DNA from: Eledone cirrhosa
Lineage: Eukaryota
Length of the DNA: 64,000 bases
Direction: 5' to 3'
Assembly: GCA_964016885.1 (NCBI GenBank)
Contig: OZ024742.1
Coordinates: forward strand, 120,962,001-121,026,000
The notes below the pieces were generated by a model. That model was not told the DNA's origin. It saw only the letters and a program-made list of their open reading frames with translations, and made no database searches. Made by a program: the position numbers and the translations under genes. Positions 11,753 to 64,000 of this stretch are shown piece after piece (position 1 is the first letter of the stretch; each line of letters opens with the position of its first letter).

Positions 11753-13549
11753 CCATTATGCCAAACCCATGATAACAACCACTTCATTACAGAAGGCAAC
11801 CATCTCTTCAACGAATTCCCTGCTATTATGAACCACTGTCAATTGCAGGCTGCTGGCCAGTTTGATGACCAAACAGGTTTTGTTTAGGTCACTTTTCCTA
11901 AACCCTTCCCATGTGGTATAGGTGAGCAGTGCATCCCCAAAAAGAGCTGCTCAAATGCTCAAGAGTGCACCAAAGCATGTTACTGTTCAGGTTAACAGTG
12001 CAGTGATGATGGGAAAAGACTCGAGCCACCCACGTGTAGATTTGTGACTATGTGTTTCTAACCACTCCAGTTTGCATGTGTCACCACTCCTCCACTGCTG
12101 TAGGACTGGTGCAAAAATATCTCCACATAAAAATGGCAATGTTACGTGCTTTGTTACACATGTAGCATCCACTCCATCCCAACTTCTAGGTGTTCAGTGA
12201 CAAGCCAAGGCAAGATAACAGGACAGTTACTAGGATCACATGTGTTATTGTCATGGAGTTTAAACTCACCAGGGGGTATAGCCATACTCACCACACTTGG
12301 CCAACTGAAGGTTGGTGAGGCTATTTAACCTATAGTTGGTGTGGATGGCTGTTGACCCTGTGGAGTTCATCTGCCCTTTGACAGCTCTTGTTTTTGTGTT
12401 GCTGGGTTTCCACATATACTCCTAGATCAGGGTCTGGTGAGGGAGCTGGTTTAGTTGTCAACCACCCGACTATGAAACAGGTTGTACTGGGTTACATGGC
12501 ACCAGTAGCAGGCAGAGACCTGACCTGACATAATATATATATATATAAACACACAAACATGCATGTATACATATTACATATGTAGGAATATATGCAAAAT
12601 GCATATGAAATTATTATCTGTAGTCAGCAATATCTTACACCCTTTTATCATTCGCATATATGTTTAATATGTTTACATCAAATTCACAAGTTGCAAGGTC
12701 AAGAGCTTATATTCTGACTTTACTTATAAATGCTATCAATACATTTGGTAGATACAGCACAAAGCTTTGTGATAAAACATTCTGCAGTACCGTTTAACAC
12801 CATGAAAAGTATTGGACACAAAGAAATATTATGGTCCAGTGGTTTCCCTGATATAACTTTGATAAATATTTGAAAAGTATATTCAAAATGAGAATTATAT
12901 ATGTACATAATTTATGTCATATTCCTAAATCTACTGAAAAGTAACTTCCTGAGAATATCAATGACTTCAATGGAAATCAATATTCACAAAATTAATCTCT
13001 CCACATCACTCTTCTCTCTCTCATCATAGTCATTTTAATGTCTGCTTTCCCTGCTAGCAAAGTTTGAACAGATCTACATAGACCAAATCAGTACTGAAGC
13101 AGAGCCACTGATCTCTCAGGCAGGCCAGGGATCTGTGTCTTGCTGTATGTACAGTTGACGCTCCACTGAGTGTGCAAGAGAGGTTGTCATGTCTTTGACA
13201 CAACTGAGGGTCCTCCGCCTCTTTTGTTTGACAAGATTTCTAGAGCTGGATACCCTTTCTACCACCAACTTTACAGAGTGTACTGTGTGCATTTATTGTG
13301 TAGATCACCTATACTAGGGAGGCTGTCATGCCTTTGACATGGCTGAAGGATTCTCCCAACCGTTTGTTTGTTTAGCCCTCACAGCTGAATGCCCTTCTCA
13401 TCACCAACCACTTCATGGGAGTAGGGGGGCAGCTGTTAGGAATGGGAGGGAAACGTGTGTGGTGGGGGTTGAAGCAGTAATGTTGAGAATAAATGTTAGG
13501 AAGTGCTAGTTGAGGAGGGTGCATGGGGGTATGTCAGGTCACATTGTAT

Positions 13550-18966: not shown

Positions 18967-19780
18967 CTATTGAGTGGTGACAGTCAAGTTTGCAATTTTC
19001 ACCTATATATATATATATGTTTTTCTTTGGTTTATATCTGTTTTTCTTTGGTTTTGTTCCATGTGATGGAAATTATGACTGTGTACCAGATTGACTACTG
19101 CCTTGAATACTGTAGTTTACTCTCCGTTCTAATGTACGGCACTATCGTTCAATATGTGGATAGTGTAACTGTGACATTGGAACCCCTCTCAGAACTTCTT
19201 ACTTAAACATCTCTCTCCATATTATTTACTCACTTCAGTCTATGTTTTTTTACTCACCTCAATCCGGATTCTCACTTGAAACATTTTTTAATTTCTAATT
19301 GTTAATTTTTTAATTATTTAATTTATAATTTTTTATTTGGGATTTTAATTTTTATTTCCAACTCTCACTCATAACTTCCAATGTAAAACCATGATACCTA
19401 GAATTAAGTATATTTTCTCTTGGGAGTTGATGGTTAGTCGTACTGTCCATGCTTGGTGAGAGGTAGTATTGTGACCTGTAAAAACAAACACTCTCCCATC
19501 CCCTCTGGCTTTCGGCTGACTGCCACAGGGTAGCAGTAAACTATGGTACAGGTCTAAATGGGTCATTGTTTGGCTGAGAGGGTGAACTGACTAAGCGAAT
19601 TTCGTTGAAATCTGCCGTAGCTAATGGTCAACTTCCTTCGGACATGCGCCTGCGCAGACTGGTGGGGGTGAATTGGTACTCACAGGGGAACGGATGAAGA
19701 ACCAAAAAGCACACACTTTGTCCGTTCCCATGTCGATTCAACTTGGATTGCCTTGGAAACATAACCTTATTATATAACAA

Positions 19781-25780: not shown

Positions 25781-26200
25781 TCATCATCATCATCATCATC
25801 ATCGTTTAACGTCCGTGTTCCATGCTTGCATGGGTTTGGACGGGAGTTTTCCCACTTGAGGCAAGAGTGGTTGTCTTGCTCGCATAGGACTGTCTGGCGG
25901 GTTTTCTACAGTTGGATGCCCTTCCTAACACCAACCACATTTACAGTGTGGGGCTGGGAGGTTTTTACCGTGTTGCCTACATGGCCACATTACAGCGTGG
26001 ACTGTCTGGCAGGTTTTCTACAGCTGGATGCCCTTCCTAACACCAACCACATTTACAGTGTGGGACTGGGAGGTTTTTACCGTGTTGCCTACACAGTCAC
26101 ATTACAGCGTGGACTGTGTGTTTTTTTGTCGTGACACCTACACGATCTCATTTGTTTCGGCCTGGATTTTGTGGCACCAACATAACTTTACATTGAAAGG
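25780..26200 (-). mobile_element. RTE-tail SINE with an internal ~114-bp tandem duplication
   Basis: (CAT)n, TTTAACGTCCG; GGACTGTCTGGC...ATTACAGCGT occurs twice (25887, 25999). Confidence 0.7.
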
Positions 26201-26285: not shown

Positions 26286-27085
26286 TTAGGTAACGCGGGT
26301 CTTCTCTATTACTGAGTACCGCCAAAGCTCTCGGTCCAGTGACATTGTCTTGGAGAGGTGTAAGTGTGTGAGGTCGGAATTTATCAGCTCGTCCCAGGTT
26401 TTTCTGGGTCTGCCTACTCCGTGGCTACCGTCTATCTTTATTGCCCTGCACTTTTTTATACAGCTGTCGTCTTTCATGCGCATCACGTGACCATACCAAC
26501 GTAGCCTTCTCTCGAGTAAACAACATCTGATCCCTCTTATTTCTAATTTTTTCCTTAGTTCGTTTATGCTTTGCCGTTCACGTATATTACTATTGCACAT
26601 CCAGCGGAGCATGCAAGCTTCGTTCCTCTCTAGTCTGCGTATATCCTCTGCACACAATGCCCAGGTCTCACTGCCATGCAGCATTGCTGTTCGTATGCAG
26701 GCATCATACAACCTGCCTTTCATTTTTAGGGAGAACCCTTTAGCGGCTAATAGTGGTATAAGCTCTCTGAACTTTTTCCATCCAGTTCTGACTCTAGCTA
26801 CTGTACTTTCGGAGAACCCTCCCCCACTGCTGATTTTGTCACCCAGGTAACGGAAGCTGTCCACTATTTCTATAGAACCCTCTGCGCAGTTGAAAGAGCT
26901 AGTATTTTGTGGGCACTTGCTGCTACTTATTGCACCAGAGCACCGGCCACATGTAAAATCTGTGTTCTTAGTTAGCTTACCTGTGATCCCACTACATCTT
27001 TTATGCACCCATACTTTGCATTTGGGACATAAAATGGAGTTTCTACCTACGCCTTTCCTACACACCGAGCATGGCCATTTCCCTA
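26286..27085 (-). mobile_element. RTE LINE ORF2 C-terminal fragment (young; open for 259 aa)
   Basis: CSVCRKGVGRNSILCPKCKVWVHKRC zinc finger, DSFRYLGD, MLHGSETW, RRLRWYGHVMR, GRPRKTW. Confidence 0.92.
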
Positions 27086-28564
27086 TAGTAACATATGTGA
27101 AGTGAAATAACTACAACTTGTAATGAAATCAAGTTTCATGCTCTGTTTGCTATGAGTTTAACTTGCTTTTATTTTACAGTCTCTCCTTTCTTTCATTACA
27201 AAATATAAATAATCTGTTACTTTTTCTATATCTTCTGTAATAATTAATTCTTTACTCAAAGGATGATTAGATATCATAGATAAACTAAAAAAAATAATAA
27301 ATGATTATATTTGCATGTCATTTTCTTAGCTATGGAAAATATTTGTTTTGAATGTGTAATTGTGATTAGCAACATCATTAGTAAGGAAAACAAACAATTT
27401 GTTTTCTTATTTCCTTGCCCTTGCATCTATCAAACTTGTTACAACAGGAAAGAATCACCAGCAACTCTTAGTAATTCAGTAACTATCAGACATAACTAAC
27501 AGCTGGCTACAGAGATAAATTTATGGACTTGGCAAAAGATAGTATTGGCTAGAGGGAAATCTGTTTCTTATTTCTAGAAAGCTATTAATAAAACTGAATA
27601 TGGGTTAAAGTTTTCACTAAGGTAAACAAGAAAATATAAAACTAAAGAAATAAATGCCCAAACCATAGAAAACATGTTGCAAGTATGGTTAGGGAAAGAT
27701 TGACCAATAGTGAATAAGAAATATTCTTTACATGTCTTGTTTCCTGATCACAGAATGTATGTCAAATTAGTTGTTATTATAAGATAAGAAGAGTTGAAGG
27801 TTATATGATGGCAGAAACAGTTGCATGCTAGATTAAAGAAGTTTTTCAGTATGAAAATGTGCACATTTTGAGTTTAAACCTTAGTGTGTCATATCTCATT
27901 AAACCCCATATTAAACACAAAATCCAACCTCCTCTCATCATCTCTAATGTATATGATCCCATTAAATCCTCTTATCGTCCCTAATGTGTTACACTGCATT
28001 AACCCCCACCACATATTAAACACACAACACAACCTCTTCTTATCATCCCTATTGTATCTCACTTCATTTAAGTGAAGCTATCTAACTGACCTAACACTTA
28101 TACTCCCATTAGTCTGGTGCAAGATAACTCCCTTCGTCTTTATAGTTTATTGGCAATGTTTTATATTTTAGATATAAACCTTAAGAAAGATTAATTTAAC
28201 AAGATTAAGTCAGTTGTTCATATAGGTCTCTTAGATCAATGACCCATTCCACCTAACTATAAGTAGGTATCATGGACTGGTATATGTCATTAATATAAGC
28301 ACTACATAACTGAAGAAAGTATTGTTATTGTGTTGTGTTGAAGCTAGATATTAAGCTACAAGTGTCTAAAATCCTATCCAGGGGAAGAAATGTTTCCTAA
28401 AACCTCAACACTATACAACAACAATGTATTTAAAGGCTACTAGAGCAGAAGTTAGTCTTGTGGACCCCTTCAGATGAGGTCTTTTAGAGGCAAAGTTTTA
28501 TAGCCAGATTCCCTTCCCAGTGCCAATCCTTTTAATCACTTCTTACAACATGCAGTGTCACCAT

Positions 28565-29360
28565 AATAATCCTCATCACCACTGTTTAATGTTTATTTTC
28601 CTTGCTTGCATGGGTTAGATGGGTTGTCATATTTTGAGGCTTGACTAATTAGATGAAAATGTCCTGCTCATAGGTTCCATTTTGGGTTTGGGTTCTATAG
28701 CTGGATGCCCTTCCTAATGCTAACCACTTTACAGTATCTACTGGGAACATTTTATCATGGCACTAGCACTATCATCTTATTGGGTGTACTGGGTGCTTTT
28801 GTTGTGATGTCAACACTACCGCCTTACACGTGGACTGGGTGCTTTTGTTGTGGCACCAGCACTACCACCTTAAGTATAGACTGGGTGCTTTTGTTGTGGC
28901 ACCAGCACTACCGCCTTACAGTATGGACTGGGTGATTTTGTCGTGACACCAGCACTACCACTTTACCGTATGGACTGGTGATTTTGTCATGACACCAGCA
29001 TTACCACTTTACAGTATGGACTGGGTACTTTTGTCATGATGTCAACACTACCGCCTTACAGCATGGATTAGGTAATTTTTTCGTGACACCAGCACTACCA
29101 CTTTACAGTATGGACAGGGTGCTTTTGTTGTGGCACCAGCACTACCACTTTACAGTGTGGACTGGGTGATTTTGTCATGACACCAGCACTACTACTTTAC
29201 AGGTGGACTGGGTACTTTTGTCATGGCACCAACACTACCACTTTACAGTGTGGACTGGGTACTTTTGTTGTGGCACCAGTGCTACCACTTTACAGTGTGG
29301 ACTGGATATTATGTTGTGGCACCAGTTATATTGCTTTACAGTGTGGACTGGGTGCTTTTA
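28565..29360 (-). mobile_element. RTE-tail SINE with internal ~44-bp unit expanded to about 14 copies
   Basis: Repeated ACTTTACAGTGTGGACTGGGTGCTTTTGTTGTGGCACCAGCACTACC-like units at 28725-29360. Confidence 0.8.
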
Positions 29361-32724: not shown

Positions 32725-33072
32725 TTTAAGGAACTCTTGGAGAAAACTGTTCCGGTTTCTTCTCTTTGGAATTAAATTTATTATATAATATAAATATAAA
32801 TTTAATAAATTAGATATATAATAAATTTAATATATAATAATAATAATGATGATTAAGTTAAAGATGTACATCCATATATGTATACTGAAATACTAGTATG
32901 TATATGAATACACACACGTATACATATGTAGATGTACCAAGTTTTTTCACTGGTCACTTTACTGTGAGTGGCCAGCTATTCTGTATGTAAACACACAGAC
33001 AAACCGGTTTTTAGAGTCATACTGGTTTTTGAGGAAACACCTTTCCTCTATTCTCCAGAAAGCCAGACAAGG

Positions 33073-33117
33073 AATATTGAACTAGTTTCGTTGTTGTTAC
33101 AACTCATCAGCAATATT
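33073..33117 (-). ncRNA. Minimal type I hammerhead ribozyme, copy 1
   Basis: AAUAUUG-CUGAUGA-GUUGU-AACA-ACAAC-GAAA-CUAG-UU|CAAUAUU. 7-bp stem I, 5-bp stem II, palindromic AACUAGUU stem III. Confidence 0.9.
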
Positions 33118-33539
33118 TACCTATCTTCCGGCCTCTCTAGAGAATCGTAAAAGCACATATCGTTATATGCTTTTTCTATGAAAATTAGTAGTGGGCAGAC
33201 TAATTTGCATAGAGTGTGAGTAAGTACCGGTTCAACGGAGACGATAAAAACAAATAACGAAACGAAATTAAATTTCGTTTCGTTTGTAACTCACTTTTGT
33301 ATGACTGACGCTTAAACAATTAAGTTAAAGATGTACATCCATATATGTATACTGAAATACTAGTATGTATATGAATACACACACGTATACATATGTAGAT
33401 GTACCAAGTTTTTTCACTGGTCACTTTACTGTGAGTGGCCAGCTATTCTGTATGTAAACACACAGACAAACCGGTTTTTAGAGTCATACTGGTTTTTGAG
33501 GAAACACCTTTCCTCTATTCTCCAGAAAGCCAGACAAGG

Positions 33540-33584
33540 AATATTGAACTAGTTTCGTTGTTGTTACAACTCATCAGCAATATT
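33540..33584 (-). ncRNA. Minimal type I hammerhead ribozyme, copy 2
   Basis: Identical to copy 1, 467 bp away. Confidence 0.9.
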
Positions 33585-33787
33585 TACCTATCTTCCGGCC
33601 TCTCTAGAGAATCGTAAAAGCACATATCGTTATATGCTTTTTCTATGAAAATTAGTAGTGGGCAGACTAATTTGCATAGAGTGTGAGTAAGTACCGGTTC
33701 AACGGAGACGATAAAAACAAATAACGAAACGAAATTAAATTTCGTTTCGTTTGTAACTCACTTTTGTATGACTGACGCTTAAACAAT

Positions 33788-33821
33788 TGAGTTGTAACAA
33801 CAACGAAACTAGTTCAATATT
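33788..33821 (+). ncRNA. 5'-truncated hammerhead at the inversion junction
   Basis: TGA-GTTGTAACAACAAC-GAAACTAGTTCAATATT; lacks the stem I 5' strand and CUGA. Confidence 0.8.
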
Positions 33822-34243
33822 CCTTGTCTGGCTTTCTGGAGAATAGAGGAAAGGTGTTTCCTCAAAAACCAGTATGACTCTAAAAACCGGTTTGTCTGTG
33901 TGTTTACATACAGAATAGCTGGCCACTCACAGTAAAGTGACCAGTGAAAAAACTTGGTACATCTACATATGTATACGTGTGTGTATTCATATACATACTA
34001 GTATTTCAGTATACATATATGGATGTACATCTTTAACTTAATTGTTTAAGCGTCAGTCATACAAAAGTGAGTTACAAACGAAACGAAATTTAATTTCGTT
34101 TCGTTATTTGTTTTTATCGTCTCCGTTGAACCGGTACTTACTCACACTCTATGCAAATTAGTCTGCCCACTACTAATTTTCATAGAAAAAGCATATAACG
34201 ATATGTGCTTTTACGATTCTCTAGAGAGGCCGGAAGATAGGTA

Positions 34244-34288
34244 AATATTGCTGATGAGTTGTAACAACAACGAAACTAGTTCAATATT
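34244..34288 (+). ncRNA. Minimal type I hammerhead ribozyme, plus-strand copy
   Basis: AATATTG CTGATGA GTTGT AACA ACAAC GAAA CTAG TT|CAATATT; predicted cleavage after 34281. Confidence 0.9.
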
Positions 34289-34596
34289 CCTTGTCTGGCT
34301 TTCTGGAGAATAGAGGAAAGGTGTTTCCTCAAAAACCAGTATGACTCTAAAAACCGGTTTGTCTGTGTGTTTACATACAGAATAGCTGGCCACTCACAGT
34401 AAAGTGACCAGTGAAAAAACTTGGTACATCTACATATGTATACGTGTGTGTATTCATATACATACTAGTATTTCAGTATACATATATGGATGTACATCTT
34501 TAACTTAATTGTTTAAGCGTCAGTCATACAAAAGTGAGTTACAAACGAAACGAAATTTAATTTCGTTTCGTTATTTGTTTTTAATAATAATGATGA

Positions 34597-34810
34597 TTTC
34601 TGATTTAGGCACAAGGCCAGCAATTTGGGGAGAGGGAAAAGTCGATTAGATTGACTCCAGTGTATTACTGGTGCTTTATTTTATTGACCTTGTAAGGATG
34701 AAAGGCAAAGTTAATCTCGGCGGGATTTGAACTCAGACAGTAAAGGGCTATAACTCTATGCTGCAAAGCATTGTGTCTGATGCTCTACCGACACTGCCTA
34801 TCCACTCCCC
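34597..34810 (-). mobile_element. Nin/Deu-type SINE whose A/T-rich tail received the retrozyme-like insertion
   Basis: Full-length match to 38206-38425 in reverse. Confidence 0.85.
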
Positions 34811-34869
34811 TCTATAATAATAATAATAAAAAAAATAATAAAATCTGAGCTCATCCCAATTAAATCCCA

Positions 34870-43944: not shown

Positions 43945-44950
43945 ATGGATTTAAGGGAGTTTAAGATCAGATGCCCATGGGAATTCCTGTATGCGGATGA
44001 CCTCGCACTTATAGCTGAGTATATGGTAGAACTAGAGTAAAAATTCCAAACATGGAAGCAGGGACTAGAAAGAAAGGGTCTCAAAGTCAACCTGACAAAG
44101 ACTAAGGTCCTTGTAAGTAGACGAGAAAACAGAACCCAGATCCCCTCAGGGAAATGGCCTTGCTCAGTATATAGGAAAAGTATTGGTAGGAACTCCATCC
44201 TCTTCCCCAAATGCAAACAATGGGTACACAAGAGATGTAACGGGATCTCAGGGAGCTTAACTAAGAATGTAGGCTTCCCATGTAGCAGCTGCGCTGGGAC
44301 AGCAAACAGCCACAGTAAACAAGCACCACCAATCTCTGGGAGGGCTCTATAGAAACAGTAGACAGCTTCTGCTACCTAGGTGACCGAATTAGCAGCGGAG
44401 GTGGGTGTTCGGAAAGTACAATAACTAGGGTAGCAACGGGATGGAAGAAGTTCAGGGAGCTACTGCCACTGCTAGCAGCAAAAGGCTTTTCCCTCAAAAT
44501 GATAGGCAGACTGTATGATGCGTGTATCCGAACAGCAATGTTACATGGTAGTGAGACCTGGGCACTGTCTGTAGAAGACTTGCGTAGATTAGAAAGAAAT
44601 GATGCCTGCATGCTCCCATGGATGTGTAATAGTAATATACGCGAACAGCAAAGCATAAACGATTTGAGAGACAGACTGAGTATAAGAGGAATCAAATGCT
44701 GTGTGCAGGAGAGGAGGTTGCGTTGGTATGGACATGTGATGTGTATGAAGAATGACAGCTGCATAAAAGGGTGCAGAGCACTAGAAGTCGATGGAAGCCG
44801 CGGAGTGTGGAGACCCAAGAAGACCTGGGATGAGGTGATAAAAGCCGACTTTACCCAATTGCACCTCTCAAAGGCGATGACACACGACCGTGACCTATGG
44901 CATCACGCAGTAATACAGAGTACCCGACTTCCCACGGGTACAAGCCGAAG
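43945..44950 (+). mobile_element. RTE LINE ORF2 3' portion (pseudogenised)
   Basis: PWEFLYADDLAL (RT YADD), GLKVNLTKTK, SFCYLGD, MLHGSETW, RRLRWYGHVM; stops and frameshifts. Confidence 0.92.
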
Positions 44951-44969
44951 CTGAAGCATATAGACAATA

Positions 44970-63900: not shown

Positions 63901-64000
63901 CGCACCACACTATCATTACACACCACACTAACATTACACACCACACCAACATTACATACAACACTAACATTACACACCCCACTAACATTACACACCCCAC
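57908..64000. repeat. 18-bp minisatellite (>6 kb, runs off the window end) with variant units
   Basis: Consensus ACACTAACATTACACACC; occasional 19-bp units shift the frame; about 335 copies by length. Confidence 0.97.

Follow-up and report, generated by a model that had tools for sequence, protein, structure and literature searches.

Non-LTR retrozymes are the closest described relatives of the element that we report here. In the coral, mussel and axolotl families characterised by Cervera and de la Pena (2020; PMC7229834), each low-GC, non-coding unit carries a canonical type I hammerhead ribozyme, as does the unit of the present family, and the mussel retrozymes comprise about 5,000 motifs in units of 350–390 bp. 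Canonical metazoan type I hammerheads cleave poorly as monomers and well as dimers (PMC4209133); eight of nine Xenopus retrozyme dimers failed to cleave in vitro (10.64898/2026.07.22.740005). In the latter work, Li, Clavereau and Pollet (2026) argue that retrozymes derive from Penelope-like elements (PLEs) and are not autonomous. A PLE protein is able in vitro to nick and extend both strands of its target; it begins at two positions inside the RNA, the segment separating these two reverse transcription (RT) start sites is the PLE 'tail', and insertion did not need ribozyme cleavage (PMC11167929). The circular RNA has been proposed as the template of retrozyme transposition, with editing named as a possible source of heterogeneity among circles, neither being shown there (PMC7229834). 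The mode of retrozyme insertion and the role of the circle as a template are questions that bear directly on the family described below.

We analysed a stretch of 64,000 nucleotides of the Eledone cirrhosa genome (hereafter, the window), in which an original prediction, made from the sequence, had inferred a young and possibly active, viroid-like retrozyme family in a probable cephalopod. The family is young, very abundant and fixed in its footprint, and hence the question of insertion can be tested on sequence alone as well as at the bench. It is best explained, with a probability of roughly 0.8, as a young non-LTR retrozyme family, that is, a non-coding, hammerhead-bearing passenger of an endonuclease-bearing PLE.

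Methods

Genome-wide counts were made by sequence-pattern matching in a genome of 3.0 Gb, ribozymes being counted with three mutually exclusive patterns. We examined 130 loci, 50 found via the ribozyme or by chance and 80 picked by the young form of one insertion end (the A end, see below); 33 were without a two-arm pair by BLAST and 4 ran beyond the fetched stretch, leaving 93 resolved. Variants were scored in 119 insertions, 80 of them with overlapping arms, after 11 of the 130 loci were dropped for having no arm at 93% identity or more. The young clade consists of 85 insertions, of which 60 have overlapping arms, and one locus with nested subfamilies (L187) was excluded from some of the variant counts. 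Unit positions are numbered from window position 33816, which is position 1, and place the predicted cleavage between 466 and 467.

Structure of the insertion

The 1,732-bp insertion is composed wholly of one 467-bp unit (Table 1). Every base of both arms fits a single 467-nt circular permutation, and the left arm is 100% complementary to the right. The arms lie head to head, with their 5'-truncated ends meeting and the RNA-sense 3' end of each facing outward, and no LTR organisation was seen in this insertion or its relatives. The unit has a GC content of 35% and is without an ORF, the longest stop-free frames being 57 aa in the sense and 62 aa in the antisense direction, while the monomer has a predicted fold far more stable than those of shuffled sequences (z = -11.4). 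The prediction of a non-coding unit in identical copies is thus borne out, down to the unit coordinates and the cleavage positions; its tandem description was sound, and omitted the inversion, the 12–17-bp target duplication and the two fixed end points.

Table 1. Parts of the retrozyme insertion and of its target, in window coordinates
Feature	Position	Strand	Remarks
Target-site duplication, left copy	32838..32854	+	At most 17 nt; 12 nt once the 3 nt and 2 nt shared with the arm ends are assigned to the element
Left arm	32852..33788	-	2.0 exact units; stops at site A (unit position 227)
Intact type I hammerhead	33057..33128	-	HH9, 37.7 bits; predicted cleavage 33080/33079
Predicted 467-nt monomer	33080..33546	-	Bounded by two predicted cleavage sites
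Intact type I hammerhead	33524..33595	-	HH9; predicted cleavage 33547/33546
Head-to-head junction	33783..33793	.	Exact overlap 1 nt; BLAST overlap 6 nt with one mismatch
Right arm	33788..34583	+	1.7 exact units; begins within the ribozyme core; stops at site B (unit position 301)
5'-truncated hammerhead	33788..33837	+	Stem I without its 5' strand, part of the core missing; cut by the junction
Octamer ATGCAAAT	34151..34158	+	Also 33203-33210 and 33670-33677 on the minus strand
Intact type I hammerhead	34233..34304	+	HH9; predicted cleavage 34281/34282
Tail	34510..34583	+	About 70 nt between sites A and B; hairpin and U-rich end; at one insertion end only
Target-site duplication, right copy	34582..34598	+	
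Host repeat hit by the insertion	34582..34830	.	TAA/TGA-rich end is the target

The host repeat that was hit, which we take to be a SINE and in which no tRNA was called, has ten more matches in the window, at 72–87% identity. Elsewhere, the window contains a 71-bp satellite at 98–99% identity and an 18-bp satellite (51998–56511 and 57912–64000), the latter in at least 337 copies with an extreme strand skew and continuing past the window end; minisatellites of 47–49 bp and 112 bp that belong to one dispersed repeat family (28723–29359, 48940–49258 and 25887–26117); and reading frames resembling transposon remains (4920–5300, 11195–11755, 26286–27110 and 44319–44954), which are presumably mariner-like, PLE-like and RTE-like. 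No host exon is evident in positions 1–49000, and the microRNA matches returned by Rfam for the window are low-complexity TA hairpins far under the gathering scores. Five runs, each of seven molluscan haemocyanin domains, are present in the genome; seven units per gene is the octopod or Nautilus pattern, so that the host is octopod-like and the 'probable cephalopod' of the original prediction stands.

A canonical type I hammerhead

Scanning with type I hammerhead covariance models, as the original prediction had proposed, returned three matches to Rfam HH9 in the window, each at 37.7 bits (E 1.2e-6) and therefore below the gathering score of 52. The claim that every copy carries a hammerhead holds for these three and fails for the truncated fourth. 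Two intact minus-strand ribozymes do lie one unit apart, with cleavage predicted in both after the triplet GUU and before a C, and the minus arm accordingly bears the two or more consecutive complete motifs by which retrozymes are recognised. Helix I has 6 bp and is extended past a bulge, helix II has 4 bp and a hexaloop, and helix III has 2 bp and sits within the palindrome ACUAGU. Among 11 hand-picked sequences, 95% of cells are paired and 6 of the 15 pairs have changed on both sides, far above slid controls, although these counts are to be taken as support and not as a probability, because the sequences are related. On its predicted structure, the window ribozyme is a canonical metazoan type I hammerhead in the terms of PMC4209133. 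It differs from the minimal hammerhead (min-HHR) of PLEs, in which helix III is cut down to the conserved core; hence, of the expected 'canonical minimal type I', the words canonical and type I stand and 'minimal' has to be dropped.

A pattern for other ribozymes sharing this helix III gave 15 matches. Other hammerhead-like motifs were encountered at L228:3717, L071:6851, L066:33 and L064:893, with ACGCGT, ATATATAT and ATGCGCAT as palindromic helix III regions, and L228 appears to represent another tandem family, its unit being short.

Copy number and age

The 39-nt ribozyme core has 4,933 exact matches across the genome, compared with 0 for the reversed control; this, together with the stability of the monomer fold, shows that the window unit is not a chance pattern. 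A further 4,204 motif matches (control 0) come from sister subfamilies in which helix II is compensated, and a third pattern, with 30,784 matches (control 28), belongs mostly to a more distant family that is 64–66% alike to the window unit across its whole length, so that the three patterns together amount to about 40,000 motifs. At least 2,334 insertions have a B end adjoining (TA)n at one fixed point. The family is therefore dispersed over many loci and not confined to one. It is also young, as had been proposed: at 467 of 467 positions the window unit agrees with the commonest base of the 119 insertions scored, in which the young subfamily is over-represented, and 27 of the 60 two-arm insertions of the young clade are without any template-borne change. 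The larger related retrozyme family, with units of about 420–540 bp, about 30,000 ribozyme motifs and a GUA cleavage triplet, shares its layout, octamer block and B-type end (examples are L012, L055, L072, L153, L159, L215 and L226).

Within the unit, the octamer ATGCAAAT falls in a 12-nt block that is invariant between families only 64–66% alike, and its hairpin is where the A>G changes described below cluster. The block TATGCAAATTAG is constant between families, its pairing partner in the hairpin is variable, and it has 26,952 matches genome-wide (control 4). Presumably, a conserved octamer would suit an snRNA-type promoter as in newt satellite 2. The block could possibly be such a promoter element, or a protein-binding site; the motif may instead have been kept for RNA structure or protein binding.

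End points and target sites

Outer arm ends concentrate at two places in the unit, positions 227–233 (site A) and 301–302 (site B), about 70 nt apart. Among the 93 resolved two-arm insertions, 81 combine an A end with a B end, one has two A ends, none has two B ends and 11 have a non-canonical end; the A+B combination accounts for 32 of 36 in the subset not selected by its end. Pairing as strict as this suggests coupling between the two priming events. In 75 of the 93 there is TA-rich DNA on both sides, the arm ends show short TA microhomology, and target duplications measure 12–17 nt at informative loci (12–15 nt at those other than the window). The combination of an inverted, 5'-truncated copy and a one-sided tail, which is characteristic of autonomous PLEs, is hence found in 81 of 93 two-arm insertions; the ORF with RT and GIY-YIG domains that defines an autonomous endonuclease-bearing (EN+) PLE is absent from the window unit.

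Autonomous PLEs are co-hosted by the genome, where 150 GIY-YIG matches were scored out of 10,597 candidates, with ORFs of 844–1096 aa that include RT, and where elements with RT, GIY-YIG and long ORFs end in (TA)n. Two Neptune-like PLE copies were noted, at L061:2909-5722 (938-aa ORF) and L063:1775-5062 (1096-aa ORF); the former is flanked by near-identical direct repeats and so belongs to a young family. Its 938-aa ORF carries the CX4CxxC motif, which marks Neptune/Nematis (10.1101/2021.04.23.441226). BLAST and a four-unit profile were run against 50 GIY-YIG loci, which represent a small fraction of the PLE copies; neither found a pseudo-LTR (pLTR) homologous to the unit, the only unit-like sequence there being retrozyme insertions that adjoin PLEs. 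At several loci (L139:2020-3212, L158, L178, L205 and L155) the arm that meets a retrozyme arm head to head is the 3' fragment of a PLE or a different TA-targeting element, through either two-template events or later deletions; the opposite arms at L139, L158, L178 and L205 are mutually dissimilar and so point to no partner element. That the retrozyme is mobilised by a PLE is nevertheless very likely. The retrozyme is thus independent in one sense, as it is not merely the pLTR of a coding element, and not in another, since its insertions carry the PLE footprint.

Variation between arms

Reverse transcription evidently runs through the ribozyme. The cleavage site is crossed by 173 of 215 arms and 8 arms end 15 nt or less from it, where 6.7 would be expected; as there is no excess of stops, a cleaved linear monomer is unlikely as the template. 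More than one unit is present in 127 of the 215 arms and more than two in 63, and the continuation always consists of further units, up to 30.

Eighteen private variants occur in all copies of both arms of the insertion that bears them. No variant fills one multi-copy arm while being absent from the other (0 at 19,010 sites in 60 insertions), and at most two variants are confined to the same register of both arms (35,902 site-rounds). In one insertion of 20 units, every unit of both arms carries three A>G changes together with a single inserted base. Read on the RNA strand, the 18 both-arm variants include nine A>G and no T>C (p 0.004), or eight to none when counted by insertion (p 0.008). Of the 36 distinct shared alleles in the young clade, 13 are A>G, against 3 that are T>C (p 0.02), whereas its singletons have 10 A>G and 16 T>C (Fisher p 0.01 against the shared alleles), G>A and C>T being their commonest changes, the pattern expected of DNA decay. 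The most recurrent site is position 345, in a UAG context, which carries G in six young insertions of differing backgrounds, and 5 of the 13 A>G sites are no more than 10 nt from a single stem.

These numbers are low, and the asymmetry is not uniform across the ways of counting. Adding single-arm cases gives 10 A>G to 4 T>C (p 0.18), and a tree-tip count gives 13 to 8 (p 0.38) on a tree that is rooted on the youngest type and unreliable for older branches. Among shared alleles G>A exceeds C>T, 7 to 3. The neighbour preference of ADAR is not significant in the young set, and in the wider set 5' G shows no depletion (4 of 16).

Three insertions, M2 (C1 near 56.39 Mb), M3 (C1 near 5.74 Mb) and L131, have arms of 11–31 units with mosaic, partly periodic variants, pointing to expansion after insertion or to assembly effects, and to a path from retrozyme to satellite. 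Arrays therefore also grow after insertion, and length alone is no proof of rolling-circle copying.

Template and editing

The mechanism that we propose would begin with transcription of tandem copies, from which two ribozymes, dimerising via the palindromic helix III, would excise the 467-nt monomer for a host ligase to close (extrapolating from PMC4209133 and PMC7229834). A circle with a single ribozyme would be unable to dimerise with itself, and would hence be stable. A PLE protein would nick (TA)n or AT-rich DNA with a stagger of about 12 bp and cDNA would be primed at sites A and B; the footprint of this staggered-nick priming is seen in the genome, and its chemistry is taken by analogy with PMC11167929. 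Each RT would continue beyond the ribozyme site, in many cases over several units, and head-to-head joining of the two truncated cDNAs would follow, as their footprint indicates. Judging by the variant patterns, both arms would share one template, most plausibly a single circle of monomer length, and A>G changes, most plausibly edits by ADAR, would reach every unit in this way.

These components do not all carry the same confidence. A circular template is probable on the sequence evidence: the singletons are symmetric and the both-arm variants are rich in A>G, a pattern that fits a single circular, ADAR-edited template. That ADAR is the source of the A>G excess has about even odds. The most specific form of the proposal, in which a dimer of the PLE enzyme, working on a single circular RNA, primes both nicks at two fixed sites of that RNA and copies the circle repeatedly, so that germ-line A-to-I edits of the circle are written into every unit, we put forward tentatively. 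Were this joint reading true, it would provide genomic evidence for the circle as the actual transposition template, explain the PLE tail and inverted arm as a single coupled event, and open a route from cephalopod RNA editing to heritable DNA change. An A>G signal that holds would answer the suggestion of edited circles made in PMC7229834, and would show edits entering the germ-line genome.

It is possible, if somewhat doubtful, that the A>G excess arises from something other than ADAR, namely errors of RT or RNA polymerase, RNA-to-RNA replication, selection tolerating G-U wobble pairs, or small numbers. RNA-RNA replication is listed beside editing as a cause of circle heterogeneity in PMC7229834. 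Fourteen of 16 A>G sites are predicted to be paired, where the change preserves a G-U pair, and the context tests are mixed and the tree-based count not significant; wobble tolerance, however, predicts C>T over G>A, the opposite of the 3 to 7 that was found, and RT errors should raise A>G among singletons, where no rise is seen. The top recurrent site has moreover the UAG context, which we take to be an ADAR preference.

Unlikely, by our estimate, is the proposal that retains the PLE footprint and replaces the circle with an uncleaved linear multimer as template, the ribozyme being a passenger or a late cutter and the circle unneeded. Unprocessed RNA was indeed the dominant substrate of a PLE in vitro (PMC11167929), arrays do expand at the DNA level, and very young, homogeneous source arrays could pass on variants shared by all units, the source locus lying outside our sample of 119 out of at least 2,334 insertions. 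Editing of a multimer should however yield unit-specific A>G, and singletons show no such excess (17 A>G vs 27 T>C); arrays of average heterogeneity should leave about 49 same-register variants, a rough expectation, against the two at most that were seen; and the ribozyme stems covary across families 64–66% alike.

It is highly improbable, and largely refuted, that the unit is only the pLTR of an autonomous PLE, one that is abundant and represented by truncated ends, as had been named beforehand as a danger to the retrozyme assignment. The head-to-head, tailed architecture does match PLE insertions; the majority of arms, however, continue as further units, a PLE protein query matched 5 of the 130 loci and none as an ORF leading into the unit in sense, and the 50 GIY-YIG loci yielded no homologous pLTR. 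A viroid-like replicon that multiplies as RNA and leaves genomic copies as by-products, although its predicted circle would be small, highly paired and ribozyme-bearing and its variants template-borne, is similarly remote, and the term 'viroid-like' is best abandoned, given a ribozyme in one polarity only (3 of 3 Rfam matches), a branched and not rod-like fold, and a spread that is accounted for by thousands of target-primed DNA insertions.

Relationship to described elements

The non-LTR retrozyme mobilised by a PLE thus remains the preferred reading, and the assignment to this class made at the outset stands: a hammerhead in a tandem, low-GC, non-coding unit, dispersed copies, and the target-site duplications (TSDs) of more than 4 bp, thousands of copies and co-occurring PLEs that the families of PMC7229834 also display. 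At 467 bp, the unit is slightly above the 150–450 bp given there and well inside the 51–972 bp of the families in 10.64898/2026.07.22.740005, contrary to its initial placement at the long end of animal retrozymes. The PLE link has already been published, both as a hypothesis and as a phylogenetic argument; as the latter work gives that link and such unit sizes, neither is new. Circles and cleavage have been demonstrated for retrozymes in these two studies, whereas the window family is known here from genome sequence. In the portions covered of either paper we found no account of ends fixed at two sites, of arms joined head to head or of A>G changes carried by the template, and cephalopods are not mentioned as retrozyme hosts in their main texts; a literature search that covered article texts yielded neither a cephalopod retrozyme nor a report of editing marks in insertions of this kind, though the family may be recorded in supplements, Repbase or Dfam.

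Newt satellite 2 (Coats et al. 1994, as cited in PMC2220036) likewise combines a dimer-type hammerhead with a tandem unit, and is there cited as having an snRNA-type promoter, whereas no proximal element was identified in the window unit.

The insertions themselves most resemble those of EN+ PLEs (Neptune/Nematis, Penelope/Poseidon and Naiad), which also consist of a tandem and an inverted, 5'-truncated copy (10.1101/2021.04.23.441226; PMC3846280). PLEs and the window family share AT-rich or (TA)n targets and two internal RT start sites; the optional one-sided tail of PLEs is 30–40 bp long as against about 70 nt here, and their TSDs of about 8–12 bp or more compare with 12–17 bp (10.1101/2021.04.23.441226; PMC3846280; PMC11167929). 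An anole element was primed without homology, unlike the window family with the short TA microhomology of its ends. PLEs possess an ORF and a minimal ribozyme, whereas the window unit has no ORF, a canonical ribozyme and arms of many identical units. The class of element is already known; the value of this family lies in the unusually clean footprint of its insertions together with the variants carried by its template, through which the circle-as-template model becomes testable.
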